64,000 nucleotides of DNA from a virus. The stretch lies in the IMG/VR virus record IMGVR_UViG_3300045988_011313, positions 33,768-97,767 of that record. One strand, given 5' to 3'. A model generated the notes under the pieces. It saw only the letters and a program-made list of their open reading frames with translations, made no database searches and was not told the origin of the DNA. A program made the translations under genes and the position numbers. Positions 3,023 to 30,901 of the stretch are shown piece by piece (position 1 is the first letter of the stretch; the number at the start of each line of letters is the position of its first letter).

Positions 3023-3036
3023 ATTACCTAAATTAG

Positions 3037-3109
3037 TTGCGGGGGAGAGACTCGAACTCTCAACCTCAAGGTTATGAGCCTTGCTAGCTACCATTGCTAT
3101 CACCCCACG
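3037..3109 (-). tRNA. tRNA-Met: tRNA-Met(CAT), initiator-like
   Basis: Cloverleaf drawn by eye. Anticodon loop CTCATAA, T arm GAGAG-TTCGAGT-CTCTC. Position 1-72 is a C-A mismatch, as in bacterial initiator tRNA. Confidence 0.8.
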
Positions 3110-3120
3110 ATGTATATTTG

Positions 3121-3192
3121 AGCAGATAGTGGGAATCGAACCCACACATTAACATTGGAAGTGTTACATACTAACCTTTATACTATACCTGC
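3121..3192 (-). tRNA. tRNA-Gly: tRNA-Gly(TCC)
   Basis: Acceptor GCAGGTA/TATCTGC, anticodon arm TAACA-CTTCCAA-TGTTA, T arm GTGGG-TTCGATT-CCCAC. Confidence 0.85.
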
Positions 3193-3197
3193 ATTTG

Positions 3198-3270
3198 AGT
3201 AGATAATCAGACTTGAACTGACCCCTTGACATTGGCAATGTCATATGCTAACCACTAACACCATACCTAC
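3198..3270 (-). tRNA. tRNA-Gly: tRNA-Gly(GCC)
   Basis: Acceptor GTAGGTA/TATCTAC, anticodon arm TGACA-TTGCCAA-TGTCA, T loop TTCAAGT. Confidence 0.85.
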
Positions 3271-3277
3271 ATTATAG

Positions 3278-3351
3278 AGCCTCCTGAAGGATTTGAACCC
3301 TCTCTTCCTGTTTACAAGACAGGCTTGCTAAACCATTAACACTAAGGAGGC
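3278..3351 (-). tRNA. tRNA-Thr: tRNA-Thr(TGT)
   Basis: Acceptor GCCTCCT/AGGAGGC, anticodon arm CCTGT-CTTGTAA-ACAGG, T loop TTCAAAT. Confidence 0.85.
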
Positions 3352-3355
3352 ATTG

Positions 3356-3439
3356 TAGTCTAAGAGGGATTTGAACCCTCAATCCCTAAAGGGCGAGGGA
3401 TTTTAAGTCCCTTGTGTATTCCAGTTCCACCATTAGACC
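3356..3439 (-). tRNA. tRNA-Leu: tRNA-Leu(TAA), long variable arm
   Basis: Anticodon loop CTTAAAA, long variable arm, T arm GAGGG-TTCAAAT-CCCTC. The 5' end overlaps the HNH stop codon by a few nt. Confidence 0.8.
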
Positions 3440-3900
3440 ATTTTATTTTTCCCTCTGTAATTGTCTGTCAGAGCATGACAATTAGGACATAAGAGCTGTA
3501 AATTACCTATTTCATTATTACTATTATTACCATCTTTGTGATGCAGCTCTAAAGGTATCTTTTGTCCTTGCCATTCAGACAACCCACATCTCTCACATCT
3601 ATATTCTTTTATATTTTCTGAAAGTAATCTTCTCTTTAGATTGTTTGAGTTATATCTTGAAGGATTTACAAGAATCCTACTAAGAGGGAATTTCTTAACT
3701 ACTGGAGAATATCTTTCACCAGAGTTCCATCCCTGACCTGTAAAGTGGGAAGTATCTATATTGTATAAATCAATTGCTTGATGTATAGTTCTGTAATTCC
3801 CTCCTACAGGCTTTATATGCAGGTATCTACATACTTGTGCTATACTAAGACTGTTTCTTATAGCCTCTTCATATACTTCTCTACTTCTCAGTTTTGTCAT
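3433..3900 (-). CDS. HNH homing endonuclease
   Basis: CERCG...ELHHKDGNNSNNEIGNLQLLCPNCH is a classic HNH (CxxC...HH...N...CxxC-H) motif. The gene is inserted between two tRNA blocks. Confidence 0.9.
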   Translation of the reverse strand: MTKLRSREVYEEAIRNSLSIAQVCRYLHIKPVGGNYRTIHQAIDLYNIDTSHFTGQGWNSGERYSPVVKKFPLSRILVNPSRYNSNNLKRRLLSENIKEYRCERCGLSEWQGQKIPLELHHKDGNNSNNEIGNLQLLCPNCHALTDNYRGKNKMV

Positions 3901-4346
3901 TAGTAAGGTCTTATATCACATAAGTGGAATAAGTAGTCATACTTATTGATATTCTGAATAAAGGTCTCACATTCAGATGTTATACCTTTATATATGGTCT
4001 CTTGAGGAATCTTATCATAGAATGCAATAGTAGCAGACTTAACTTCACTTATAAAGTCAAAAGCATTCAGTGCATCACTTGGAGTTCCTTTGATTACATT
4101 AGGTTGCATCTTACCAAGTATTCCCATATACCCTTCTGCAAGCCCATCCTGATAATCTGACAATATATCAAGGAACTCATCAAGATATACATGGATATTC
4201 TTCTTAGGTGCTGCCCAATGCAGATTCTTACACTTAGTCTTCCAACCTTCAAGCTGATTTAAGAAGTTGATAAAGAGCTGAGAACCAGACACTTCAGTAC
4301 TTCTGCTTGATTCCATTGGGGTAAATAGATTATCTTCTCCAAACAT
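3900..4346 (-). CDS. Dps/ferritin-like four-helix-bundle protein (putative)
   Basis: KNLHWAAPKKNIHVYLDEFLDILSDYQDGLAE resembles the Dps ferroxidase region (K..HWN..G.NF...H..LD). TAATG overlap with the HNH gene. Promoter 4367-4398 lies directly upstream. Confidence 0.45.
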   Translation of the reverse strand: MFGEDNLFTPMESSRSTEVSGSQLFINFLNQLEGWKTKCKNLHWAAPKKNIHVYLDEFLDILSDYQDGLAEGYMGILGKMQPNVIKGTPSDALNAFDFISEVKSATIAFYDKIPQETIYKGITSECETFIQNINKYDYLFHLCDIRPY

Positions 4347-4366
4347 ATTCTCTTATTTTGATGGTG

Positions 4367-4398
4367 CAAAGATAAGTATTTTAATTGAAATATGCAAG
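4367..4398 (-). promoter_or_regulatory. Bacteroidota-type promoter (cTTG-N20-TAtcTTTGCA)
   Basis: Minus strand reads cTTGCATATttcaattaaaatactTAtcTTTGCAcc. The -7 box is complementary to 4367-4374 and the -33 box to 4395-4398. It lies about 20 nt upstream of the start codon at 4346. Confidence 0.6.
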
Positions 4399-4425
4399 TA
4401 AAATACTATATTTTTTTTTTATTTT

Positions 4426-4746
4426 TTAAAAATAAAATACAGAGAGTAGAGTATAAGCTATTTTTGCCCATATACTCTGATTTATATTTAAATCTACTGT
4501 ACCTGTCCTTCTTCTTTTTATATGTAAAAAGTATAATAGATTATGTGCTCTCCATTCATTAACCATACCAAATATACTTCTCTTGTGTATAGCATAAGAA
4601 TTATCACATGTGTTTCTTATCTTCTTTAAGACATTAACCATGTCATTTATTCTCCTTATCCTATAAGAGTCTGTTATAGAAGTATTATAGGTACTTAAAA
4701 GCACATTAATAATGTACTCACTATATTTAATATTAATCATTTTCAT
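4426..4746 (-). CDS. hypothetical protein (106 aa)
   Basis: ORF track. Lies between tRNA-Leu(TAG) and the promoter. No motif recognised. Confidence 0.4.
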   Translation of the reverse strand: MKMINIKYSEYIINVLLSTYNTSITDSYRIRRINDMVNVLKKIRNTCDNSYAIHKRSIFGMVNEWRAHNLLYFLHIKRRRTGTVDLNINQSIWAKIAYTLLSVFYF

Positions 4747-4748
4747 AG

Positions 4749-4837
4749 TACCCTCTAAGAGACTCGAACTCTTACACTACTATTACTTCATGTCTGCTTC
4801 TAAGGCAGATGTGTCTACCAAATTCCACCAAGAGGGC
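4749..4837 (-). tRNA. tRNA-Leu: tRNA-Leu(TAG), long variable arm
   Basis: Acceptor GCCCTCT/AGAGGGT, anticodon arm TCTGC-CTTAGAA-GCAGA, T loop TTCGAGT. Confidence 0.85.
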
Positions 4838-5029
4838 ATATAGCCTTTGACCACCTTCGGCTATTAAAGTGAATGATACGACATTCATTAGGGGCTAGTC
4901 TTACTCTGTAAATATTATTAATATTCAGAAACCCTAAGAGTTACGTTGCTACATATAATCTAGAACTCATAGCTTTGTTAGTTCTTTTTAAGTGCTCACA
5001 TACCTTGGTTAAATATGCAAGCACTACTG

Positions 5030-5104
5030 TGGGTGCTCAAAGAATCGAACTTTGTTCTAAGGATTTTCAGTCCTCCGCAATGTAACCATACCTGCCCAAC
5101 ACCC
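5030..5104 (-). tRNA. tRNA-Phe: tRNA-Phe(GAA)
   Basis: Acceptor GGGTGTT/GAGCACC, anticodon loop CTGAAAA, T loop TTCGATT. Confidence 0.85.
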
Positions 5105-5172
5105 ATAATGACTTATTTGTGTCTCTACCCACATCACTTTCCATAAGTCAAGGACAAAGATTTCTATTGAAG

Positions 5173-5255
5173 TGGGGCAGAAAGGAATTGAACCTTAAAT
5201 AGCCTGAGGCAGTGGATTTACAGTCCACACTAATTCACCACATTAAAGCTACCCC
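5173..5255 (-). tRNA. tRNA-Tyr: tRNA-Tyr(GTA), long variable arm
   Basis: Acceptor GGGGTAG/CTGCCCC, anticodon arm GTGGA-CTGTAAA-TCCAC, T loop TTCAATT. Confidence 0.85.
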
Positions 5256-5291
5256 ATATAATATTTATTACTCACTCCAACATCAAAGGAA

Positions 5292-5399
5292 CTATATTCC
5301 AATTGGAATAGTTCCTGTAGGTGTCCAAGCATAAGACTTAGCAGCCTGTCTAAAATATGCCTTAGCACCTTTCTTAATTAATGAAATAACCTTTTTCAT
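5292..5399 (-). CDS. possible micro-ORF (35 aa) inside the tRNA array
   Basis: Hand translation gives MKKVISLIKKGAKAYFRQAAKSYAWTPTGTIPIGI*. It is below the ORF-track cutoff and has no supporting motif. Confidence 0.2.
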   Translation of the reverse strand: MKKVISLIKKGAKAYFRQAAKSYAWTPTGTIPIGI

Positions 5400-5435
5400 A
5401 ACAATTAAAAATTTGAAGTTAATAATATGTTATGT

Positions 5436-5507
5436 TCCCCCATAAGGAATCGAACCTTACTCTCCAGATTAAAAGTCTAGAGCATCCACCATCAATGCTT
5501 TGGGGGA
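5436..5507 (-). tRNA. tRNA-Lys: tRNA-Lys(TTT)
   Basis: Acceptor TCCCCCA/TGGGGGA, anticodon loop CTTTTAA, T loop TTCGATT. Confidence 0.85.
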
Positions 5508-5529
5508 GTATTTGCCAAGGTTGAGGTTG

Positions 5530-5602
5530 TGCTCCCACAAGGACTTGAACCTTGAGTCCCCTGTTTAAGAGACAGGTGCTTTAACCAATTCAGCTATAGG
5601 AG
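5530..5602 (-). tRNA. tRNA-Lys: tRNA-Lys(CTT)
   Basis: Acceptor GCTCCTA/..GGGAGC, anticodon arm CCTGT-CTCTTAA-ACAGG, T loop TTCAAGT. Confidence 0.85.
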
Positions 5603-5604
5603 CA

Positions 5605-5856
5605 TTATTTCTTTTCATACTTTTCAGACCATGCCTTAGTAATACCTGCTGATGCAAATACTCCAGCAACAGCACCTATATAAGCAGCAAGACCATTAAG
5701 GTCTGTCTGTATGGTATGATTATAACATATTTCTATTATAAGAAGTACAGCAGGAACTGATAGTAGGATTAAACCTATTAAAGTAACTGCCACTAAGAAG
5801 AAGTTCTTTGAAGAAATTCCTGTATTGTTCTTTATAAGTTTATCTATATAACACAT
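5605..5856 (-). CDS. small membrane protein (83 aa, two hydrophobic helices)
   Basis: The track ORF 5605-5883 is trimmed to the Met at 5854-5856 because the extension overlaps tRNA-Cys. Hydrophobic helices: FFLVAVTLIGLILLSVPAVLLII and LAAYIGAVAGVFASAGI. Confidence 0.5.
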   Translation of the reverse strand: MCYIDKLIKNNTGISSKNFFLVAVTLIGLILLSVPAVLLIIEICYNHTIQTDLNGLAAYIGAVAGVFASAGITKAWSEKYEKK

Positions 5857-5858
5857 AG

Positions 5859-5933
5859 ACTTGGAGGTGGGATTTGAACCCACGAATCATCAGATTTGCA
5901 GTCTGTGCCCTTAGACCACTTAGGTACTCCAAG
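5859..5933 (-). tRNA. tRNA-Cys: tRNA-Cys(GCA)
   Basis: Acceptor CTTGGAG/CTCCAAG, anticodon loop CTGCAAA, T arm GTGGG-TTCAAAT-CCCAC. Confidence 0.8.
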
Positions 5934-5937
5934 ATAG

Positions 5938-6014
5938 TACTGGCAGAGGGGATTGAACCCACATGCAACCTATTACCCTTTCTACTGTGTATAAGACAGA
6001 GGGGATATGCCAGT
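5938..6014 (-). tRNA. atypical tRNA-like gene, candidate anticodon TAT (Ile)
   Basis: Perfect 7-bp acceptor ACTGGCA/TGCCAGT and a T arm with loop TTCAATC. However, only 8 nt separate the acceptor from a 4-bp hairpin, CTGT-CTTATAC-ACAG. A 22-nt segment containing a D-loop-like TAATAGGTTG follows that hairpin. Confidence 0.5.
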
Positions 6015-6018
6015 ATAT

Positions 6019-6095
6019 TGGGGTGTTAGATGGGATTTGAACCCACGCCATAAGGAGCCACAATCCTCTGCTCTACCTGACTGAGCTACTAACAC
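6019..6095 (-). tRNA. tRNA-His: tRNA-His(GTG), 3' CCA encoded
   Basis: GTGTTAG-TA-GCTC-AGTCAGGTA-GAGC-A-GAGGA-TTGTGGC-TCCTT-ATGGC-GTGGG-TTCAAAT-CCCAT-CTAACAC, followed by C-CCA. Confidence 0.85.
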
Positions 6096-6097
6096 AG

Positions 6098-6169
6098 TGC
6101 TGATGGAAAGACTCGAACTTTCAACTACTGCCTTATGAGAGCAGCCTTCTACCATTGAAGTACATCAAC
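6098..6169 (-). tRNA. tRNA-Met: tRNA-Met(CAT), elongator type (or Ile2 if lysidine-modified)
   Basis: Acceptor GTTGATG/CATCAGC with G1-C72 paired, anticodon arm CTGCT-CTCATAA-GGCAG, T loop TTCGAGT. Confidence 0.8.
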
Positions 6170-6190
6170 TATTACTCTTCTTGACCAATG

Positions 6191-6267
6191 TTGGGATGGT
6201 GAGAATTGAACTCACCTGTAACCAACTACTCTTTCAGCTGCTTATCAGACAGAGGAGATACATCCCA
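6191..6267 (-). tRNA. atypical tRNA-like gene, candidate anticodon GAT (Ile); paralog of 5938-6014
   Basis: Perfect acceptor TGGGATG/CATCCCA and T arm GTGAG-TTCAATT-CTCAC. Shares the rearranged core of 5938-6014: TA-TCTCCT-CTGT-CTGATAA-GCAG, then a 22-nt segment containing TAGTTGGTTA, which is a D-loop-like motif. Confidence 0.5.
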
Positions 6268-6272
6268 ATATG

Positions 6273-6345
6273 CTGAGAAGATAGGAATTGAACCCATAAC
6301 TGCTGGTTTTGGAGACCAGTGCTCTACCAATTGAGCTACTTCCCA
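6273..6345 (-). tRNA. tRNA-Trp: tRNA-Trp(CCA)
   Basis: Acceptor TGGGAAG/CTTCTCA, D arm GCTC-AATTGGTA-GAGC, anticodon arm CTGGT-CTCCAAA-ACCAG. Confidence 0.85.
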
Positions 6346-6354
6346 ATTACTTAG

Positions 6355-6427
6355 TTGCAGGTAGTGGATTTGCACCACTGGTCTCCCCATTAAGGGTAGG
6401 GCGAGATTACTACTTCTCTAACCTGCT
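6355..6427 (-). tRNA. degenerate tRNA-like gene, Lys(CTT)-like, possibly a pseudogene
   Basis: Cloverleaf dimensions are normal. Three features deviate: the anticodon loop CCCTTAA has C at position 33, the T loop is TGCAAAT (G at 55), and positions 1-72 form an A-A mismatch. Confidence 0.35.
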
Positions 6428-6536
6428 AAAACATCAAATCATTGATTACTTCTTCTTATTGCACTCAGAGAACTTTCAGAAATGATGTCATCAAGTATTG
6501 CAAGCTACTTGACTAAACTTCTTGCAAAAGTTTTTG

Positions 6537-6608
6537 CGGGACCTGTAAGACTCGAACTTACATCTAAGGGTTAACAGCCCCTTGTTCTAACCTTTGAACT
6601 AAAGACCC
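6537..6608 (-). tRNA. tRNA-Asn: tRNA-Asn(GTT)
   Basis: Anticodon arm AGGGG-CTGTTAA-CCCTT, T arm GTAAG-TTCGAGT-CTTAC. One acceptor mismatch. Confidence 0.8.
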
Positions 6609-6615
6609 ATTTATG

Positions 6616-6689
6616 TTGCTCCTATTAGAATTGAACTAATGACCTTTTCCTTGTAAGGGAACTATTCTAAACCACTGAACTAAGGAGCA
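6616..6689 (-). tRNA. tRNA-Val: tRNA-Val(TAC)
   Basis: Acceptor TGCTCCT/AGGAGCA, anticodon loop CTTACAA, T arm ATTAG-TTCAATT-CTAAT. Confidence 0.85.
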
Positions 6690-6775
6690 TTGATAGGGCA
6701 GTTTCTTTAACCTCTAACTGCCCAAAAGATGGTTCAAGCAAAAGCTCAACATTATGAAAACATGAAAACATAGTG

Positions 6776-6849
6776 TGGACCTTGTGAGATTTGAACTCCT
6801 CTAAAACATTGCAAATGTCTTGTGCTAACCTGATTACACTACAAAGCCC
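6776..6849 (-). tRNA. tRNA-Ala: tRNA-Ala(TGC) with G3-U70
   Basis: Acceptor GGGCTTT/AAGGTCC gives the G3-T70 wobble that marks Ala identity. Anticodon arm AGACA-TTTGCAA-TGTTT. The T stem is weak (3 bp). Confidence 0.75.
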
Positions 6850-6854
6850 ATTAG

Positions 6855-6927
6855 TATGGGTACTTGGACTTGAACCAAGGACAACTGGCTCCCAAAGCCA
6901 GCATTCTACCTACTGAATTACACCCAT
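6855..6927 (-). tRNA. tRNA-Pro: tRNA-Pro(TGG)
   Basis: Anticodon arm CTGGC-TTTGGGA-GCCAG, T arm CTTGG-TTCAAGT-CCAAG. Confidence 0.85.
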
Positions 6928-6933
6928 ATATTG

Positions 6934-7019
6934 CGGAGAGCATTGTACTCGAAACAAATACCTTATTAGGGTACTCACTATTTAGCAGATAGGACTATCA
7001 CCTTGATAGTTTACTCTCC
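6934..7019 (-). tRNA. tRNA-Ser: tRNA-Ser(GCT), long variable arm
   Basis: Acceptor GGAGAGT/GCTCTCC, anticodon loop CTGCTAA, long variable arm, T loop TTCGAGT. Confidence 0.8.
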
Positions 7020-7060
7020 ATACTTTCCTTCACCAATATGTCAAAGAACACCTATTATTG

Positions 7061-7145
7061 CGGAGAGATGAGGTCCCGACCCCCAAGCATTTTACTGCTC
7101 CCATTGTTTTCAAGACAAGTCCCAGTCCCACTGAGTTACCTCTCC
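7061..7145 (-). tRNA. tRNA-Ser: tRNA-Ser(TGA), long variable arm
   Basis: Acceptor GGAGAGG/TCTCTCC, anticodon loop CTTGAAA. The T loop GTCGGGA is unusual. Confidence 0.7.
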
Positions 7146-7199
7146 ATTGCCTACCTACCTCTGTAGGATAGGACTTCAGTAGATTAAAAGTGGATTAGC

Positions 7200-7270
7200 A
7201 GGATGTGGGAGAATTGAACTCCAATCTTCTGATTGACAGTCAGACACATTAACCACTATGCTACACACCC
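7200..7270 (-). tRNA. tRNA-Asp: tRNA-Asp(GTC)
   Basis: Acceptor GGGTGTG/CACATCC, anticodon arm TCTGA-CTGTCAA-TCAGA, T loop TTCAATT. Confidence 0.85.
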
Positions 7271-7277
7271 TAAGTTG

Positions 7278-7349
7278 TAGAGCTATTGGGAATTGAACCC
7301 AAGTTTCTGCCTTGAGAGAGCAGTTACCTATCCACTAGTAGATAGCTCT
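7278..7349 (-). tRNA. tRNA-Glu: tRNA-Glu(CTC)
   Basis: Acceptor AGAGCTA/TAGCTCT, anticodon arm CTGCT-CTCTCAA-GGCAG, T arm TTGGG-TTCAATT-CCCAA. Confidence 0.8.
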
Positions 7350-7355
7350 ATATTG

Positions 7356-7429
7356 TATTGGGTATGGGGCTTGAACCCATAATCTCCACATTGAAAGTGT
7401 GGTGACTTAACCACTTCGTCTAACCCAAC
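7356..7429 (-). tRNA. tRNA-Glu: tRNA-Glu(TTC)
   Basis: Anticodon arm CCACA-CTTTCAA-TGTGG, T arm ATGGG-TTCAAGC-CCCAT. Confidence 0.85.
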
Positions 7430-7435
7430 ATTTAG

Positions 7436-7507
7436 TACCCCCTGAGGGAATTGAACCCCCATTAAAGGCTTAGAAGGCCCTTGCATTATCCATTATACTA
7501 AGAGGGC
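7436..7507 (-). tRNA. tRNA-Arg: tRNA-Arg(TCT)
   Basis: Anticodon arm AGGGC-CTTCTAA-GCCTT, T arm GGGGG-TTCAATT-CCCTC. Confidence 0.85.
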
Positions 7508-7524
7508 ATTTACCTTTACTATTG

Positions 7525-7597
7525 TTACCCCAATAAGACTTGAACTTATGTTACAGGAGCCAAAATCCCGTGTAATAACCAACTATACTATGGGGCA
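7525..7597 (-). tRNA. tRNA-Gln: tRNA-Gln(TTG)
   Basis: Acceptor TGCCCCA/TGGGGTA, D arm GTAT-AGTTGGTTA-TTAC, anticodon arm CGGGA-TTTTGGC-TCCTG. This is the first gene of the array in the transcription direction. Confidence 0.85.
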
Positions 7598-14139: not shown

Positions 14140-14213
14140 ACTCTCATAGCTCAGCAGCATAGAGCATTGGTTTCCTAAACCAAGGGTCGAGGGTTGGAGT
14201 CCCTCTGGGAGTA
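14140..14213 (+). tRNA. tRNA-Arg: tRNA-Arg(CCT)
   Basis: ACTCTCA-TA-GCTC-AGCAGCATA-GAGC-A-TTGGT-TTCCTAA-ACCAA-GGGTC-GAGGG-TTGGAGT-CCCTC-TGGGAGT-A. The T loop has G at position 56. Confidence 0.8.
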
Positions 14214-14302
14214 CTAAGGTGTTATTTGTAAAGGTAATTTGATTGTTTTTAGGTATTTATTATAGGAAACTGGTATGTGATATATAGGTTTCCTTTTGTT
14301 AT

Positions 14303-14374
14303 GTCTCCATAGTTCAAGGGATAGAACAATAGTCTTCTAAACTATATATCTGAGTTCGAGTCTCAGTGGAGATA
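14303..14374 (+). tRNA. tRNA-Arg: tRNA-Arg(TCT), second copy
   Basis: GTCTCCA-TA-GTTC-AAGGGATA-GAAC-A-ATAGT-CTTCTAA-ACTAT-ATAT-CTGAG-TTCGAGT-CTCAG-TGGAGAT-A. Confidence 0.85.
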
Positions 14375-14585
14375 CAATGTCTATTTAACTACTATTTCCT
14401 GACCATGCTGTGCAAAATGACTGAAAATGTGGTGCTGATAGGTAAGCTATCACCACTTATAAATGCAACTACTTCAATGTGGGGATATAAAGAGAAAGTT
14501 ACGTGACTTTAATAATGATGTTTCAATAGGAAACAATATTTGACTTTGTTAGGACATTCTTTCAATAAGAAATGAATCCAAATAA

Positions 14586-14968
14586 GGGGCATTTTTTGGT
14601 TTTGATTGCTGATTATTTAGTAAGAGAACATGCAAAGACTGATGGAAAGACATCAAAACAATAACTGGCAATACTTCTTATAGAGTTGCTGCCTAAATAG
14701 GCTGAGTAGCACTTACTTGGAAACAGAAAGGTGCAAAGCCTGAATGAAGACTAAGGCTGAGGGTCCTACTTTAAGAGCATTAATAGGCTGTGGTCTCGCA
14801 GAAGGTAACTCAACTTTTTCCTTGTTTATGGACAATAAAATAAGGTGGTGGAAATGCTGTAAATCCAGACAGACCCAGTGGGTAACTGACCACATTAAAA
14901 AGTAGTAAGCATGTGTAATTCTTTTATTAAAGATTAGTAAGACAGGGGTTCGATTCCCCTATGCTCCA
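14586..14968 (+). ncRNA. ssrA: tmRNA (SsrA), one-piece, about 383 nt
   Basis: The 5' GGGGCAT pairs with the 3' ATGCTCC to give 7 bp, including the G3-U70 wobble. T arm AGGGG-TTCGATT-CCCCT, discriminator A. The internal tag frame at 14667-14696 (GGC AAT ACT TCT TAT AGA GTT GCT GCC TAA) encodes GNTSYRVAA* and is preceded by AACAATAACT. Confidence 0.8.
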
Positions 14969-15002
14969 CAAAATAACTTTAGTATTAACTAAAAAAAAAA
15001 GT

Positions 15003-24284: not shown

Positions 24285-25325
24285 ATGGCATTCAGCAAAG
24301 GTAAATCTTCTGTGAGCCTTGATGATATTCTAAGTAAAGTGACAGAGGCAGACATCCTGTCACATTACTTGGGAGTCACAGAGGTTCCGTGCATAATCAA
24401 TAGTCCTCTTAGACAGGATAGGAGACCCTCCTTTGGTCTTTACTCTTCTGATGGGATAAGGATATTTTATATAGACTTAGCCACAAAGGATAGTGGGGGT
24501 CTGTTTGACCTTCTTGGTAAAATGTGGAATTGTGGTTTTAAGGAGGTCTTAAGTAAAATTAATAATGACATTTCAAAGTTCTGTGGTGGTGCCAGTATTC
24601 ATTCATACACTCCCTGTGCTGTAAGAAGTACAAATAGTTACAACAAAGATACAGACTTGCAGTGCAAAGTCAGAGATTGGAGAGATTATGATATTGAATA
24701 TTGGGCATCCTATGGTATAACTTTGGAATGGCTCAAGTATGCAGAGGTTTACCCTATATCTCATAAGATTGTCATAAAAGATGGTCATAGATATGTGTTT
24801 GGGGCTGATAAATATGCCTATGCTTATGTAGAACACAAGGAAGGTAAGGTTACTCTAAAGATATACCAGCCTTTCAATAAAGCTGGTTATAAGTGGAGTA
24901 ACAAGCATGACAATTCTGTAGTAAGCTTATGGACTAAAGTACCTGAATATGGGGAACAGATTTGCATTTGTTCTTCACTGAAGGATGCCTTATGTCTATG
25001 GGCTAACACAGGTATTCCATCTCTTGCCATTCAAGGTGAGGGGTATAGGATGAGTGATACTGCAATTAGTGAGCTGAAAAGAAGATATAAACAAGTCTTC
25101 ATTTGCTTGGATAATGATGAGCCAGGATTAAAGGATGCTCAGAAATTATCTGAAGAAACAGGTTTTACTAATGTAGTATTACCACCCTTTAATGAAGGGA
25201 AAGATATTAGTGACTTGATGAAAGCTAAGGGCAAAGATGAGTTCCTTAGAATAATCAAGCCTTTATTTGACTCTTCAAGACAAGAGGACAATGATTGGAA
25301 TGATTTGCCCTTTTGTATAGATTAA
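24285..25325 (+). CDS. DnaG-like primase (Toprim domain)
   Basis: ICICSSLKDALCLW...IQGEG...VFICLDNDEPGLKDAQKL shows the Toprim E...DxD pattern. Confidence 0.75.
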   Translation: MAFSKGKSSVSLDDILSKVTEADILSHYLGVTEVPCIINSPLRQDRRPSFGLYSSDGIRIFYIDLATKDSGGLFDLLGKMWNCGFKEVLSKINNDISKFCGGASIHSYTPCAVRSTNSYNKDTDLQCKVRDWRDYDIEYWASYGITLEWLKYAEVYPISHKIVIKDGHRYVFGADKYAYAYVEHKEGKVTLKIYQPFNKAGYKWSNKHDNSVVSLWTKVPEYGEQICICSSLKDALCLWANTGIPSLAIQGEGYRMSDTAISELKRRYKQVFICLDNDEPGLKDAQKLSEETGFTNVVLPPFNEGKDISDLMKAKGKDEFLRIIKPLFDSSRQEDNDWNDLPFCID

Positions 25326-25371: not shown

Positions 25372-26064
25372 ATGGAAGCAAGAAAAATTACAGTCGTACA
25401 GACTAAGAATCAGAAAAAGAGTGTTATTATGTCAGCAGCCACAACCCTTGCTGAGTTGAAAAGTGACTTGAGAGACAATGGCATTGACTATGATGGTATG
25501 ACCTTCTTTGAAGGCACATCAAAGGTTGAATTGAAGAATGATACTTCTGTTCTTCCTCATGATGTTCCTTACAAGGGAACTGTCACCAATGAGTTGGTTT
25601 TCATGCTTACTAACACTAACAAGAAAATCAGAAGTGGTGCTACTACAATGAGCAGAGCTGAGGTATACAGTGCTATCAAATCTATGGGTTTGCAGGATGC
25701 TTGTGTAGAGAAGTTTGGCAAGAACTTCACTATGTGTAAGACTGCTGACCTTATTGCATTAGTACAGAGCAATGGTGCTTCAAAGCCTGCTCCTGCTACT
25801 CCTAAAGCTGAGGCTAAGGCTGAGGCTAAGGTAGAAGCACCTGCAAGTAGTGATGGTGAGTGTGTTGATACTGTAGCAAGAGCTGCTATTAGTAAGTTGG
25901 TGGAAATTCTTGAGGACAATGGCACAATCGAGGATTATGAGAAAAAGGAATTGATTGGCATTCTTGGGGGTAAGGTTGCAGTAAGTGCTGAACCTTCTGG
26001 GGAGCCTTCTCCTTATTCTGATGATGAGATTGGTGATATGTTCGCAGAAATGGGTGTCAATTAA
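25372..26064 (+). CDS. protein with an N-terminal ubiquitin/ThiS-like beta-grasp pattern, then a helical HeH-like segment and a low-complexity linker
   Basis: KITVVQT / KSVIMSA / TLAELKSDLRDNGI / MTFFEG / LVFMLTNTNKKIRSGA mirrors ubiquitin strand-strand-helix-strand-strand order. Later features: CKTADLIALV, (AEAK)n and ILGG. By-eye fold inference only. Confidence 0.4.
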   Translation: MEARKITVVQTKNQKKSVIMSAATTLAELKSDLRDNGIDYDGMTFFEGTSKVELKNDTSVLPHDVPYKGTVTNELVFMLTNTNKKIRSGATTMSRAEVYSAIKSMGLQDACVEKFGKNFTMCKTADLIALVQSNGASKPAPATPKAEAKAEAKVEAPASSDGECVDTVARAAISKLVEILEDNGTIEDYEKKELIGILGGKVAVSAEPSGEPSPYSDDEIGDMFAEMGVN

Positions 26065-26079
26065 CAAAAGTAAGTAACA

Positions 26080-26122
26080 GTAGGTAAGGAGGTTAGGAAT
26101 GCCCCCTTACCTACTTTTTTTT
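26080..26122 (+). terminator. rho-independent terminator
   Basis: GTAGGTAAGG (26080-26089) pairs with CCTTACCTAC (26105-26114), followed by T8. Confidence 0.7.
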
Positions 26123-26130
26123 ACAGTAAT

Positions 26131-27423
26131 ATGAGTGGAGAAACAATTAAATTAATTGAGGAGGGGATAGAGAAACTATATAACTCCTTAATGGACAAGC
26201 CACTTCGAGTATTAGACATATTCAATGATTTCTTTGGAGAGGATAAAGTTGATATGCAAGGGTATTGGAGTTTGGACAAGTTCAAACTTTGGATGTATAC
26301 AGAGCCTTTATCTACTTATATCTCTGTTGGTAATATAGACAGGAATGACTGGAATATATATGAAACACAGGCTATTACTGATTTACCTGAAGACCAAGTA
26401 GGAAAGGCTGTTAATATGCTTACAAGTACTATGGCAAAAGAAAGAATTGGTAATGCTAAGTTCAGTAACATATTCATTCTTGTACATTTTCCTCATGTAA
26501 GAGTAACTAATGAGCATGATAGATTTGTGGATATTAACCATCTGTGGGCTAAGGTGAAAGTAATGTATGATGGCACATTGAATGGTGGATTTACACTTAA
26601 TAGGTCAGAATATACTATGCTTCACATTAGTAGTGGATATATGCACAGTCATATCAGTAGTATTCCTAAAGGTGACTTTACCCGTTTTCAGAATCCTTGC
26701 ACAGGCAGTGGTCCTATTAATGGTACTATTGGTGCCCTCAATAGGGACTATGATGAGGATATGTGGAATATGTTCTGTCTTGAGCTAAGTAAGTATGTAA
26801 CTGTAGAGTCCGTTGCTGGCAGACCTTATAAATATTTGGAAAAGTTAGGTACCAATGATATGGAAATAGGTATAGATAGATTCATTACATATCTGTCTCC
26901 TGATTACCATGGAAATGTCATTACTCCTAATAAATTCAAGGAGTTTGTAAGGTACTTTATTAGCACTAAGAAGCTCAAATTTAACTATGTCAATGGTTCT
27001 TATTCTATTGGAATGTCACTTATTGAATTTATTGTACTCATCAGTAATGAGTTCATTAAATGGTATAATGACCAGTTCAATAAAGAGGAATTAACTATTA
27101 AGTTTGCAGACTTGAAGAGACATGGTATCTTGAAAGAGTGCATCATAGACAATGAAAAGATTTACTATGATAGGAGCAGGGATAATGTAAACAACTATGC
27201 TCAGTATATAGGCAAGAAAGTCTGTGTATTCAAGGGAAGAGAGATAACTGTAGATATTACAGATATTGCAGAAGTGAAGAATGAGAACAAGAGTATAATT
27301 CTTAATACTCATACTGCATTATACATATTAACAACAATACTCAAAGTATTAAATTACAGGTATGGAAGAAACAAAGCAACCCACGAAGGTAATCAGCTTG
27401 GTACAGAAGTCAGGTATCTATAA
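26131..27423 (+). CDS. hypothetical protein (430 aa) upstream of the JAB gene
   Basis: ORF track. No motif recognised with confidence. Contains GYMHSHISSIPKGDFTRFQNPCTGSG. Its 3' end overlaps the JAB ORF by 62 nt. Confidence 0.65.
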   Translation: MSGETIKLIEEGIEKLYNSLMDKPLRVLDIFNDFFGEDKVDMQGYWSLDKFKLWMYTEPLSTYISVGNIDRNDWNIYETQAITDLPEDQVGKAVNMLTSTMAKERIGNAKFSNIFILVHFPHVRVTNEHDRFVDINHLWAKVKVMYDGTLNGGFTLNRSEYTMLHISSGYMHSHISSIPKGDFTRFQNPCTGSGPINGTIGALNRDYDEDMWNMFCLELSKYVTVESVAGRPYKYLEKLGTNDMEIGIDRFITYLSPDYHGNVITPNKFKEFVRYFISTKKLKFNYVNGSYSIGMSLIEFIVLISNEFIKWYNDQFNKEELTIKFADLKRHGILKECIIDNEKIYYDRSRDNVNNYAQYIGKKVCVFKGREITVDITDIAEVKNENKSIILNTHTALYILTTILKVLNYRYGRNKATHEGNQLGTEVRYL

Positions 27424-28570
27424 TTATAAGCTGATTATTCCAGCAGAAGTGGAAAGAAAGATAAGGTTTACCTGTCAGAAGGTATGGAATACTGAATGGT
27501 CAGGTACATTGTTCTTTACACATGAAGGCTCATTTGAGAATAATGACCTTGTGATAAGATGTGTGGACATTTATATCATGGATATTGGAACTCAAGCCTA
27601 TACAGAGTTTGATATGAATCCTGATGTAATATCCTACATGTGTGAAAATCCTGAATTGCTAGATTGTCAGATGGGTCTTATACATTCCCATAACAATATG
27701 AGTACTTTCTTTAGTGGAACAGATACTGCTACTCTAAAGGAAGAAGGCAGGGATAGAAACAATTTTGTGTCTCTTATTGTGAATAATGCAGGTTCCTATA
27801 CTGCTGCAATTACAAGGAGAGTCAAGTCAAAGCAGGTCAGGGAGTCTGTATCTTATGAGTTCTTTGGTGATGGTGAAAAACAGGACACTAAGGAATATGT
27901 AAGTGATGCAGATGAGATTGAGTGGTTCTATCTTAAAATAGAGAAAGAAGATGAGAATTATTCCTTTCCAGACATGGCAGCAAGACTTGAGGAAATCAAA
28001 CAGGCTAAAGCAGAGAAAGCCAAGAAAGTGCAGACACCTGTATATCAAAGTGGCTATAAGCATACTATTGCTAATTCCCATGATACAAAGGCAGGTCCAG
28101 CAAATCTTGTCAAGAAGGAAGCTGATAAGCCTAAGGTAGACCAGCCATCCCTCTTTGACAATGTGGATGATTTGCCATTTGATGATAACTATAGTCTGCC
28201 TTATGGTCAGGTGACACTTGATAAAGTCACTTTGAAATCTCTTGTACTCCAATTGGTTACAGGCAGTATTCTTATTTCTAATGATAGTAAGATTGATATT
28301 CCTAAATGGGCTAAGTCAATGTCTACATTGTATGAAAAGAGATTTGGCAAGGGTGAAGAAGGCATGGAAAATTTCAAAATGTGGGCAGATACCTATACAG
28401 AATATCTGACATGGTATGTGACAGATGAGAAATTAGAAAAGCTTGGCTTTGATGAAACAGAAATTTGTGCTATTTGTGCCCATGATATGATAGAGGAGCT
28501 TACAAAACTTCCTGAAAATGATTATATCAAAGGGTATATTGATGCACTTCAAAAATACTTAATATTATGA
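27362..28570 (+). CDS. JAB/MPN (JAMM) metallopeptidase-domain protein with a long C-terminal extension
   Basis: Exact JAMM signature HSHNNMSTFFSGTD (H-x-H-x7-S-x2-D) with an upstream Glu in PAEVERK. Confidence 0.8.
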   Translation: MEETKQPTKVISLVQKSGIYNYKLIIPAEVERKIRFTCQKVWNTEWSGTLFFTHEGSFENNDLVIRCVDIYIMDIGTQAYTEFDMNPDVISYMCENPELLDCQMGLIHSHNNMSTFFSGTDTATLKEEGRDRNNFVSLIVNNAGSYTAAITRRVKSKQVRESVSYEFFGDGEKQDTKEYVSDADEIEWFYLKIEKEDENYSFPDMAARLEEIKQAKAEKAKKVQTPVYQSGYKHTIANSHDTKAGPANLVKKEADKPKVDQPSLFDNVDDLPFDDNYSLPYGQVTLDKVTLKSLVLQLVTGSILISNDSKIDIPKWAKSMSTLYEKRFGKGEEGMENFKMWADTYTEYLTWYVTDEKLEKLGFDETEICAICAHDMIEELTKLPENDYIKGYIDALQKYLIL

Positions 28571-29463
28571 ATGAAGAAGTAACAATTTCACCAGAAATAA
28601 TTGACAGGTATCTTGCAGGGGTACCTATCCCTGTACCTGTAGAGGATGGTGACAGCATTAGCTTTGAACTTTCAGAAGAAGAACAGGCTATTCTTGACCA
28701 AGCTGTAGAAGATGCACATCAGGAAATACCATCAAACTCTGCAACTTTGCTTGTAGATGAAACTACAAGTAGGTTTAGTTCTGCCATTTGGTATGAGAAC
28801 ATTCAGAAGAAAACTGTCATTTTGGCAGGTGTAGGTGGCATTGGTAGTTATGTAGGCTTCTTATTGGCAAGGATGAAGCCAGCTTCTATGTTTATCTATG
28901 ATAATGACATAGTAGAAGCTGTCAATATGTCAGGTCAGTTGTATGGTCAGTCTGATTTAGGTAGGTCTAAAGTATCTGCACTGGCTGAGATGATTAGAAA
29001 CTATGCTAACTATAGTAGTGTCTTTGCAATAAATGAAAGATTCACTGATGAATCTGAAGCATCAGACATTATGATTTGTGGCTTTGATAATATGGCAGCA
29101 AGAAAACTTTTCTTTAATAAATGGGTAAATCATGTTCAATCCAAACCAGAGGAGGAAAGGAAGAATTGCCTGTTCATTGATGGTAGGTTGGCAGCAGAGG
29201 AGTTTCAGGTATTGTGTATTAAGGGAGATGATGAGTATAACATCAATAGGTACAATAATGAGTTCCTATTCTCTGATGCAGAAGCTGATGAGACTGTCTG
29301 CTCCTATAAACAAACTACCTTCTGTGCAAATATGATTGCATCCTATATGGTCAATCTGTTTGTGAACTTTTGTGCTAATCAGTGTGAGCCTCTCATTGAC
29401 AGAGACTTGCCATTCCTTACCACATATAATGCAGAGACAATGTATCTTAAAACTGAAGTATAA
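28567..29463 (+). CDS. E1-like ThiF/MoeB-family adenylyltransferase
   Basis: Glycine-rich loop VILAGVGGIGSYVGFLLA, FIYDNDIVEAVNMSGQLY, SKVSALAEMI and ICGFDNMAARKLF. ATGA overlap with the JAB gene. Confidence 0.75.
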   Translation: MNEEVTISPEIIDRYLAGVPIPVPVEDGDSISFELSEEEQAILDQAVEDAHQEIPSNSATLLVDETTSRFSSAIWYENIQKKTVILAGVGGIGSYVGFLLARMKPASMFIYDNDIVEAVNMSGQLYGQSDLGRSKVSALAEMIRNYANYSSVFAINERFTDESEASDIMICGFDNMAARKLFFNKWVNHVQSKPEEERKNCLFIDGRLAAEEFQVLCIKGDDEYNINRYNNEFLFSDAEADETVCSYKQTTFCANMIASYMVNLFVNFCANQCEPLIDRDLPFLTTYNAETMYLKTEV

Positions 29464-30227
29464 TGGAATTTAGCCAAAGATTTGTATATAGTGCTATAGG
29501 AGTCTTCAATAGTAGTGATACCAATGGTGTAGCTTGGCTTAGGAGTGAGTTATCTCTTGATAGTAACAATGTATTTAGTAGAAGCCTTGTTGTTGAAGTA
29601 GATGATAATGAGGTAGAGATACCTGTGATTGCAAGAGAACACTTTGAGGGTTTAGTGTCAGAGAAGATAGACCACCCATTAGCTGTAGGAACCAAGAGGA
29701 TAATACTGCCATTGTATGATAATGCACCAAGTCAGGAGAGAAGAACTTTTGATAGTATCATAAAGCAGTTGTTTACTAATGTAAGATGTCATGAAAGATT
29801 GCAGAAGATAACTACCAACAGGGGTGAAGTGTATTATGGTGGCAAAGGTATTATCTTTGATGAAAGCTATACCCCATTGCTATTATGTACATTAACTGCA
29901 AGAAAGGTACATACAGAAGAAGGTGGCAATAGTATGGTCTATTATAGACCTGTATGCCATGTTAGCCCTAAAGTATTCTTAGAGTCTGACAAGTTGATTA
30001 ACAAAGGTATTATTAAGAAACTTATTCCTATCTATACAAGTAGAGAGGTAAGTCTTCCTAATTACAATTTTGATGTCAATCCAGAGAGTAAAAAGGTGAA
30101 AGTTGTAGTGGATAATTTTGATAAGTTCTTTATAGAGCCTATCAAGCCTACTCCATCTGCCACTACTAATGATGCACTGAATGAATGCCTTATTGACAAT
30201 ATGGATGACATAATGATGTTGATATGA
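29463..30227 (+). CDS. hypothetical protein (254 aa) coupled to the E1-like gene
   Basis: TAATG overlap upstream and ATGA overlap downstream. No motif recognised. Contains YYRPVCHVSP. Confidence 0.65.
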   Translation: MEFSQRFVYSAIGVFNSSDTNGVAWLRSELSLDSNNVFSRSLVVEVDDNEVEIPVIAREHFEGLVSEKIDHPLAVGTKRIILPLYDNAPSQERRTFDSIIKQLFTNVRCHERLQKITTNRGEVYYGGKGIIFDESYTPLLLCTLTARKVHTEEGGNSMVYYRPVCHVSPKVFLESDKLINKGIIKKLIPIYTSREVSLPNYNFDVNPESKKVKVVVDNFDKFFIEPIKPTPSATTNDALNECLIDNMDDIMMLI

Positions 30228-30901
30228 CATTAGATGAATACTTTGGAGATTGGATGAAAGTAATTGATAGGGCAGAGCTAAACAATGTAATGGCTAAGGT
30301 TGGACAGGAATATAGGAGGAAGCCTCTATGTCCTGCCCAATCTGATGTGTTCAGAGCATTTGAGCTTTGTCCTCTCAAGGACTTAAAAGTAGTTATGTTA
30401 GGTCAAGACCCCTATCCACAAAAGGGAGTTGCAACTGGCATACTTTTTGGTAACAAGAAGGAGGTTGATGAGGATAACTTGTCTCCTTCATTAAATGTTG
30501 TTAAAGAAGCAGCCATTAATTTTGAGATTCCACATTATTGTATTACCTTTGACCAAACTTTAGAGAGTTGGGCTAAACAAGGAATACTAATGATAAACTC
30601 AGCTTTGACTGTGGAGATGAACAGGATAGGCTCCCATGTGATGATGTGGAGACCTTTCATAGCTAAACTGTTGAAAAACCTGTCTGAATATGACACAGCC
30701 ATAGTATATGTGCTATTTGGCAGACAGGCTCAGACTTTCAAACCTTATATCAATAGTAGATTCAATCACATTATAGAGATTGAACATCCTGCATACTTTG
30801 CAAGGAGTGGCACTAAGATGCCACACCAACTATTTATTGATATAAGTAATAGAGTAAAAGGAATTTATGGTGTACCAATAAAATGGTACGAAGAGTATTA
30901 A
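30224..30901 (+). CDS. ung: uracil-DNA glycosylase (family 1-like)
   Basis: VVMLGQDPYPQKG contains the GQDPY water-activating motif. LMINSALTV and EHPAYFARSG are the later motifs. Confidence 0.8.
   Translation: MTLDEYFGDWMKVIDRAELNNVMAKVGQEYRRKPLCPAQSDVFRAFELCPLKDLKVVMLGQDPYPQKGVATGILFGNKKEVDEDNLSPSLNVVKEAAINFEIPHYCITFDQTLESWAKQGILMINSALTVEMNRIGSHVMMWRPFIAKLLKNLSEYDTAIVYVLFGRQAQTFKPYINSRFNHIIEIEHPAYFARSGTKMPHQLFIDISNRVKGIYGVPIKWYEEY

Follow-up and report, generated by a model that had tools for sequence, protein, structure and literature searches.

A candidate ubiquitin-like modification cassette in the replication module of crAss-like phages

Plasmids and mobile elements carry an operon, type 6d of Iyer, Burroughs and Aravind (2006), that encodes a small ubiquitin-like protein (Ubl) terminating in Gly, together with alpha-helical, E2-like and E1-like proteins and a JAB protein that bears an additional N-terminal domain (PMC1779556). 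Because the species listed for type 6d and its gene content match those of plasmid cassettes, we equate it with the PRTRC cassette (NCBIfam TIGR03734-03742), on which no experiments were reported in the literature retrieved. Here we analyse a five-gene cassette that appears to be a distant counterpart of this system in a phage. It lies in a 64,000-nucleotide stretch of DNA (positions 33,768 to 97,767 of IMG/VR record IMGVR_UViG_3300045988_011313; hereafter the window) from a crAss-like phage, whose nearest record, bajarodcaudo virus 1, shares 80% nucleotide identity. The cassette encodes a putative Ubl precursor (open reading frame 1, ORF1), a JAB-family (JAMM) metallopeptidase, an E1-like enzyme and two further proteins, ORF2 and ORF5. 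Like PRTRC, the phage set belongs to a mobile element and combines a JAB protein and a rhodanese-less E1 with a small beta-grasp protein that has Gly at its end; both sets are located near replication or partition genes, and each holds a ~400-aa and a ~250-aa protein of unclear role. The phage set differs in lacking ParB, protein E, protein F and the JAB-N domain and in having no detectable protein B or C homologue; its Ubl is fused to a C-terminal region of ~140 residues and its gene order is different. In addition, its carrier is a lytic phage of Bacteroidota, whereas PRTRC is carried by plasmids.

Bacterial ubiquitin-like conjugation acts in anti-phage defence in type II CBASS and Bil, and such a role has been proposed for Bub (PMC11601596, PMC11601603). 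The type II CBASS proteins Cap2/Cap3 and the Bil system (BilABCD) share E1-type adenylation and a JAB peptidase with the phage cassette, and Bil further resembles it in having a beta-grasp ubiquitin-like protein, which Bil conjugates to a protein target. On the other hand, the phage cassette has no recognisable E2 domain and is encoded by the phage, not by the host. In type I Bub (6E; BubAB, BubCD), the ubiquitin-like protein is first synthesised as part of a fusion, a feature that the phage would share, but the fused partner is an E2, the JAB domain is fused to the E1, the intermediates are oxyesters and a DUF6527 serine protease is present (PMC11601596). Bub is a bacterial system thought to be defensive, and the phage cassette shows only weak E1 similarity to it. 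The only phage pairing of Ubl and JAB that we encountered in the literature searched is that of the lambda-type tail assembly proteins I (ubiquitin-like) and K (JAB plus NlpC/P60) (PMC1779556). Those proteins have no accompanying E1, belong to different families and are encoded in a tail-assembly module, whereas the present cassette stands in a replication module.

Putative ubiquitin-like precursor, JAMM peptidase and E1-like enzyme

The ORF list of the window gives the five genes as follows.

25372..26064, + strand: ORF1, 230 aa
26131..27423, + strand: ORF2, 430 aa
27362..28570, + strand: JAB metallopeptidase, 402 aa
28567..29463, + strand: E1-like enzyme, 298 aa
29463..30227, + strand: ORF5, 254 aa

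These coordinates are identical to those in an earlier reading of the bare sequence (the original prediction), as are the gene overlaps, and every motif string quoted there (HSHNNMSTFFSGTD, ILAGVGGIGSYVG, IYDNDIVEAVNMSGQLY, GFDNMAARKLF and NKKIRSGA) is present in the translations.

ORF1 was modelled with AlphaFold2 (AF2) from an input of 121 sequences. The parts of ORF1 distinguished below are these.

25372..25638, + strand: ubiquitin-like beta-grasp domain with tail, residues 1-89 (AF2 model, Foldseek)
25618..25638, + strand: NKKIRSG tail motif, residues 83-89, with the predicted site of JAB cleavage and E1 activation after Gly89
25639..26064, + strand: C-terminal part, residues 90-230, comprising a helical domain, a linker and an acidic tail (AF2 model)

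The model contains a beta-grasp at residues 1-81 (predicted local distance difference test, pLDDT, 75-86) in beta-beta-alpha-beta-beta-beta order, with strands at 4-10, 15-21, 43-47, 65-67, 70-72 and 75-81 and a helix at 26-35. It is followed by a low-confidence tail at residues 82-94, in which pLDDT is below 50 at 85-88, by a three-helix domain at 95-135 (helices 95-105, 108-115 and 124-135) and, beyond residue 135, by a disordered linker, a helix and the acidic tail. When the model was compared with the PDB using Foldseek, the top matches were ubiquitin, SUMO1, ISG15, TINCR, UBX and DIX; only ubiquitin-type folds were returned, with a probability of 1.00 and target-normalised template modelling (TM) scores of 0.6-0.73, but with E-values of just ~1e-3. 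The beta-grasp that the original prediction had seen in the alternating residues of the ORF1 N-terminus is thus borne out. No Pfam match was found for the C-terminal part (residues 90-230), which ends in a conserved acidic-aromatic tail, DDEIxDMF (window 26017-26061). This tail resembles those with which single-stranded-DNA-binding proteins bind their partners at the C-terminus, and its gene stands directly after the primase gene.

The end of the beta-grasp domain is strongly conserved. K84, S88 and G89 are kept in 198/199 unique homologues, within the motif N-K-K-I-[KR]-S-G, and the S-G pair is retained even in the distant versions of FpV4 and Dulem virus. NKKIRSGA occupies residues 83-90 in the window phage. 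Of the two possible processing motifs proposed originally, the tail KKIRSGA therefore stands, whereas the second one, ILGG, was dropped as a motif, its conservation being limited to close relatives. Furthermore, in two IMG/VR contigs, L059 and L060, an HNH homing-endonuclease gene (3046-4004 and 3201-3875, respectively) lies inside the ORF1 homologue. The upstream ORF stops after ...NKKIKSGKF, two codons past the tail Gly, and a new, separate ORF, MNTNNMTRTEAY..., encodes the C-terminal half, so that this split provides a natural marker of a module boundary at SG. Processing of such a fusion would have precedents: PRTRC protein C sequences end in KG, that of Xanthomonas extending ~60 residues past TKG, and in type I Bub a Ubl-E2 fusion is cut by the JAB domain immediately behind a conserved Gly, exposing the C-terminus for E1 (PMC11601596). 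We consider ORF1 to be a putative precursor of a ubiquitin-like protein; cleavage after Gly89 is predicted, and it would free the C-terminal part.

The homing endonucleases showed a feature of their own. In L059 and L060 the start of the gene reads M-E-I-TGA-K-D; the counterpart in contig L008 has Trp at the TGA position, and the L059 frame is open for ~165 codons beyond the TGA, which is either a nonsense mutation or a TGA decoded as Trp. A similar homing-endonuclease gene is situated between ORF1 and ORF2 in L008 and in contig L020.

The JAB protein carries the motif HSHNNMSTFFSGTD at residues 108-121, corresponding to H-x-H-x7-S-x2-D, with TEWSG (E45) upstream. The JAMM signature noticed originally is thus complete, E45 included, and it is conserved: at least 97% of 83 homologues have E45, H108, H110, S118 and D121. 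The catalytic core covers residues ~25-165 and is followed by a C-terminal helical extension of ~200 residues, for which Pfam gave no match. A family profile searched against PDB sequences found CSN5 (E 0.0055) and PfJAMM1 (E 0.026). In comparison with PRTRC protein A by hhalign, the phage JAB aligned with a probability of 93.1% (E 3.2e-7), and the two share the signature HSHxxxxxFFSxTD; the match begins at column 84 of protein A, leaving the JAB-N domain without a counterpart in the phage.

The E1-like protein matches Pfam ThiF (PF00899) with an E-value of 8e-18 and 64.9 bits, above the cutoff of 28.1. Its family profile, searched against PDB sequences, found UBA5 (2.5e-11) and also MccB, PaaA, TcdA, UBA7, MoeB, ThiF, NAE and Cap2; the match to BubCD was weak (E 1.1e-4). 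These matches place the gene in the E1 superfamily of adenylation domains, as had been proposed, and not in another Rossmann family. G88, G90, G91, D112, K135, D174, R179 and the N-terminal R69 are invariant in a six-sequence alignment and kept in at least 97% of an 87-sequence set; Cys245, N120 and Q124 are also invariant. The protein thus has the GxGxxG motif, the ribose-binding Asp, the phosphate-binding Lys, the Mg-binding Asp of DN..R and the N-terminal Arg, and its key residues line up with the corresponding residues of PRTRC ThiF in hhalign (probability 98.2%, E 3e-14, 197 columns covering most of both proteins). The invariant Cys245 (CSYKQT) is aligned with the invariant C195 of PRTRC ThiF. 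Placed after the adenylation core, it would be able to serve as a thioester or acyl-disulfide Cys. The N-terminal extension of the protein is variable among relatives. Aligned over their full length, both enzymes are closest to their PRTRC ("6D") counterparts.

The data directly support the folds and families of the Ubl, E1 and JAB proteins, their conserved residues, the module boundary at SG and the gene order. Three results had been named in advance as contrary to a Ubl/E1/JAB cassette, namely an E1-like gene falling in a non-E1 Rossmann family, an ORF1 N-terminus without a beta-grasp and a lack of co-conservation in related phages. None of them occurred, and the overall reading of the locus is supported.

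ORF2 and ORF5

ORF2 and ORF5 had been suggested as candidates for the missing E2-like enzyme, an adaptor or a target. The ORF2 features considered are these.

26644..26700, + strand: motif H172-S173-H174 ... F186 ... C190 (residue conservation)
26704-26706, + strand: invariant G192, just past the motif stretch

The AF2 model of ORF2 is confident (mean pLDDT 84.6). It begins with a helical part, continues with three long strands (115-158) and a loop that holds H172-S-H174 and C190, and ends with helices at 195-222 and an alpha/beta part. Among 150 sequences of the family, clustered at 50% identity, N127, E128, S173, H174, C190, G192, G194, P195, E218, E226, S227, G230 and P232 were invariant and H172 nearly so, a pattern expected of an enzyme. 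The family is very large, comprising 3065 clusters in a representative library (50% identity; E up to 0.001). Foldseek against BFVD returned only uncharacterised crAss-like proteins, and profiles built from 6 and from 150 sequences gave no match among PDB sequences. The segment H172-S-H174 ... C190-x-G192 follows a three-strand meander and precedes two helices, a resemblance to E2 at the level of the motif only. In addition, H-x-H ... C-x-G recalls the H-A-P-L-x-N ... C-x-G of PRTRC protein B, and hhalign placed the two Cys motifs together three times, each time at a probability of <0.1%. ORF2 is therefore regarded only as a candidate functional equivalent of an E2, which would act via Cys190.

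Other identities for ORF2 were considered and rejected. A second JAB-like domain, suggested by the likeness of 'GYMHSH' to 'GLIHSH', had no MPN fold match; matches to GTP cyclohydrolase I and T-fold enzymes were at chance level in Foldseek (E 4-7); and there was no signal for a relationship to the alpha-helical PRTRC protein F.

ORF5, for which 1135 homologues were found, had no match in Pfam, NCBIfam, PHROGs, PADLOC or PDB profiles. Its conserved residues are mostly hydrophobic, and an assignment as an E2 or RWD-like protein was rejected for want of a conserved Cys and of any profile signal.

Proposed pathway and alternative explanations

We propose, at somewhat better than even odds (a probability of about 0.55), that the cassette is a module with which the phage activates and processes a ubiquitin-like protein, ORF1 being first cut after Gly89, then adenylated by the E1 and finally conjugated. 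From the families and residues described above we infer the chemistry (cleavage, adenylation, thioester formation), what ORF2 does, what the targets are and what purpose the module has. ORF1 would be a precursor whose first 89 residues form a beta-grasp with a flexible NKKI[KR]SG tail. The JAMM peptidase would cut after Gly89 to yield a Ubl with a C-terminal Gly and a free helical/acidic C-terminal fragment. The E1-like enzyme would then adenylate Gly89 with ATP and probably load the Ubl on Cys245, from where it might be passed to phage or host proteins, either via Cys190 of ORF2 or directly. The same JAB peptidase could reverse the modification, and ORF5 might be an accessory protein, an adaptor or a target. 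The purpose of the module may be the control of replication proteins or interference with ubiquitin-like immunity of the host. A fuller version, a complete phage conjugation pathway with ORF2 (Cys190) as a non-UBC family of carrier enzymes and with a modifier that is cut out of a fusion and joined to phage or host proteins associated with replication, is advanced only tentatively, and we rate it as doubtful.

Several points weigh against the proposed module. First, no E2 was detected anywhere in the cassette by profile searches. Foldseek found no PDB structure for ORF2 at E <1, a Pfam scan of 77 members of its family gave neither an E2 family nor any other, and its comparison with PRTRC protein B by hhalign remained at a probability of <0.1%. 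The homologue set of ORF5 showed no conserved Cys or His and no catalytic signature. Neither protein thus has a detected E2 fold or profile match, and an E2 assignment for ORF2 is not supported by PDB fold, Pfam, PDB profiles or protein B; we keep it as a working hypothesis only. Second, some of the family matches are incomplete. The Arg of the E1 motif N-x-x-R-Q is replaced by an invariant Gly123 (N120-M-S-G123-Q124), whereas PRTRC ThiF retains N-x-G-R-Q. The JAB protein scores below the gathering cutoff of Pfam Prok-JAB (E 4.2e-4, 20.6 bits against 25). The whole ORF1 model is weak, with a mean pLDDT of 62.5, and the ORF1 tail ends in SG, not GG. Third, the relationship to PRTRC is distant: the NCBIfam cutoffs are all missed (PRTRC_ThiF, 33.5 against 144.75 bits; PRTRC_A, 13.4 against 101.8), the other NCBIfam PRTRC models (proteins B-F and ParB) gave no match with the cassette proteins, and profile comparison detected no sequence similarity between the ubiquitin-like domain and PRTRC protein C. 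Finally, Ubl conjugation is proposed here from sequences and models. On the sequence comparisons, the cassette is best described as a distant relative of PRTRC that probably works in the 6D/PRTRC or Bub manner, yet stands outside the catalogued families.

Among the alternatives, the one that survives best is that the beta-grasp is purely structural in a replication-associated protein, being never cleaved or activated, while the E1 and the JAB act on the C-terminus of ORF5 or ORF2 or on a host protein, as Cap2 acts on a CD-NTase and MccB on a peptide. Many beta-grasp domains are not modifiers (PMC1779556), MccB, PaaA and Cap2 are among the PDB matches of the E1, and ORF1 lies directly after the primase gene and bears a helical domain and an acidic-aromatic tail. 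However, the invariant S-G is found exactly at the end of the domain, in a flexible tail, and the natural gene split lies two codons past it. Moreover, neither ORF5 nor ORF2 has a conserved C-terminal Gly, and the Ubl, the E1 and the JAB are strictly co-conserved. We therefore regard a purely structural beta-grasp as unlikely.

Less probable again is a sulfur carrier, in which, in the style of CysO/Mec+/MoeZ or QbsCDE, trimming of the Ubl by the JAB and its adenylation by the E1 would lead to a thiocarboxylate that donates sulfur to a metabolite or to a tRNA or DNA nucleoside. A trio of Ubl, E1 and JAB also makes up known sulfur-carrier pathways (PMC1779556). As in the ThiS/ThiF, MoaD/MoeB and CysO/Mec+ pairs, a ThiF-family enzyme of the phage would activate the C-terminal Gly of a beta-grasp protein; in both CysO and QbsE a C-terminal extension is trimmed by a JAMM peptidase. 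The conserved Cys245 could hold a persulfide or an acyl-disulfide, the phage has 25 tRNA genes, and the best NCBIfam matches of the E1 are ThiF models. These matches are all below cutoff, however, none of the equivalog cutoffs for ThiF, MoeB or PRTRC_ThiF being reached (for example, 69.3 bits against 159), and the cassette has an SG rather than a GG tail and no rhodanese domain. Partners for sulfur insertion are also lacking: Pfam and NCBIfam revealed no ThiG, ThiH, MoaE, CysM, TtuA or desulfurase family in the cassette and its immediate neighbours, and no sulfur partner family is present in the annotated replication/nucleotide region of crAss001 (Gp48-Gp104). A sulfur carrier is also disfavoured by full-length alignment, which places both enzymes nearest to those of PRTRC, a cassette of the conjugation type.

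The least probable explanation is counter-defence, in which the phage JAB strips Bil- or CBASS-type conjugates of the host and the phage Ubl and E1 serve as decoys or competitors without targets of their own. Bil, Bub and type II CBASS employ Ubl/E1/JAB chemistry against phages (PMC11601596, PMC11601603), and the Rossmann stretch of the E1 (residues ~75-175) matches E1-E2 (Cap2) models in PADLOC (PADLOC-DB version of 2023). However, that stretch alone does so, the JAB, ORF1, ORF2 and ORF5 matching no PADLOC defence model at E up to 1. A deconjugase, moreover, would need neither a conserved precursor nor a full activating enzyme whose Cys is conserved, and the cassette is fixed in the replication module, not in a variable anti-defence region.

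Distribution, genomic setting and significance

The cassette is flanked in the window by two genes and contains one RNA element.

24285-25325: DNA primase gene, upstream of ORF1
26070..26124, + strand: terminator-like hairpin followed by a run of eight T, between ORF1 and ORF2 (folding energy, comparison across phages)
30224..30901, + strand: uracil-DNA glycosylase (UDG) gene, adjoining ORF5 downstream

The order primase, ORF1, ORF2, JAB, E1, ORF5, UDG is the same in bajarodcaudo virus 1 and in crAss001 and the PhiCrAssBcn phages (Kehishuvirus), and also in DAC15 (Wulfhauvirus), cr126_1 (Kolpuevirus) and cr128_1 (Mahlunavirus). Flavobacterium phage FpV4 (Fipvunavirus) keeps the core with UDG upstream of the block, and Dulem virus 41 keeps both the core and the order; in these two, phmmer detected no homology to ORF5 in the gene at the fifth position. 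With this exception, the five genes were found in all of ~85 related loci with sufficient flank, drawn from Steigviridae, Fipvunavirus and unclassified phages. In a phage collection searched by tblastn, ORF2 was found in 74 of 50,697 records, and the phage-type E1 was found in the same taxa with identical counts by organism tally (Bacteroides 29, Flavobacterium 29, uncultured 12, four others). All hosts named in the 74 records are Bacteroidota species, and ten further ThiF matches in the collection belong to unrelated phages. The genes are thus co-conserved across distant phages, the order being kept in ~85 loci and ORF2 and the E1 occurring, by organism tally, in the same 74 records.

Among 185,579 species genomes scanned, the phage-type E1 cassette was found at five loci only, all of them contigs of metagenome-assembled genomes (MAGs). 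These contigs (L097-L101) are labelled Bacilli, Acholeplasmatales, Spirochaetia, Clostridium and Eubacteriales. At least three of the five loci match crAss-like E1 sequence at 67-85% identity, for which binning errors are the likely cause, and one contig equals in length a viral contig of 94,451 bp. The five were set aside as cellular homologues, looking like mis-binned phage.

An unrelated ThiF-family gene was also seen in Xanthomonas phage PhiXhv-12 (L090, 2754-7506), beside a gene for an 892-aa Cys-rich protein with 'IHPHM...GSLCLGS'. A 140-aa protein ending in ...KASGG is encoded upstream of ThiF, and ligase and topoisomerase genes lie around. Except for the E1, no sequence similarity was found between the proteins of this jumbo phage and the crAss cassette, and the set may be an independent phage Ubl/E1 set.

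The hairpin behind ORF1 has a folding energy of -25.1 kcal/mol (z -4.65). A hairpin with a T-run recurs at this position in crAss001, DAC15, FpV4, cr126, cr128 and many contigs, the sequences of the stems being unrelated. This conservation suggests that ORF1 is produced in larger amounts than the enzymes, which would allow the Ubl to outnumber them. The remaining genes are closely packed. From the coordinates, ORF2 and JAB overlap by 62 nt in different frames, JAB and E1 by 4 nt, E1 and ORF5 by 1 nt, and ORF5 and UDG by 4 nt. The out-of-frame overlap of ORF2 and JAB is conserved, measuring 62 nt in bajarodcaudo virus 1, crAss001, PhiCrAssBcn13 and cr126_1, 50 nt in cr128_1, 80 nt in Dulem virus 41 and 125 nt in FpV4. 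No slippery sequence was evident in the overlap (window 27362-27423), which may serve translational coupling. No ParB gene was found in or beside the block.

At ~8 kb and ~56 kb of the window, GC skew and AT skew change sign, and these switches mark the limits of one long plus-strand gene block that includes the replication module. A transfer-messenger RNA gene was found at 14586-14971 (+; Rfam RF00023, 71.9 bits), with an ARAGORN tag peptide GNTSYRVAA ending at the stop codon. The tRNA genes of the phage lie at 3036-7597 (-) and 14140-14375 (+); an extra tRNA at 3278-3351 was found in Rfam only, without an ARAGORN call.

Part of this gene content is already on record. The crAss001 orthologues of the five genes are Gp79 to Gp75, and the GenBank record of crAss001 labels Gp77 as 'metalloprotease domain' and Gp76 as 'ThiF'. 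A 2026 preprint mentions in passing a gut-phage protein family matching UBA5. Otherwise, literature searches combining crAss with PRTRC, ThiF, JAB and ubiquitin returned no account of such a phage system, in agreement with the original prediction. No description of the cassette, of the Ubl precursor or of a PRTRC link was found in the literature searched, which left subscription journals mostly outside, so an earlier mention is possible.

Tractable models for such a system exist in crAss001, the PhiCrAssBcn phages and DAC15, all of which are grown on Bacteroides. The analysis also flags ORF2 as a very large, uncharacterised, enzyme-like family with a confident model and no solved-fold match. 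Our data raise the possibility that phages themselves use ubiquitin-like modification, whether to control replication proteins or to disrupt ubiquitin-like immunity of the host. On the fuller version rated as doubtful above, a non-UBC conjugation pathway would operate during infection by some of the most abundant phages of the human gut.

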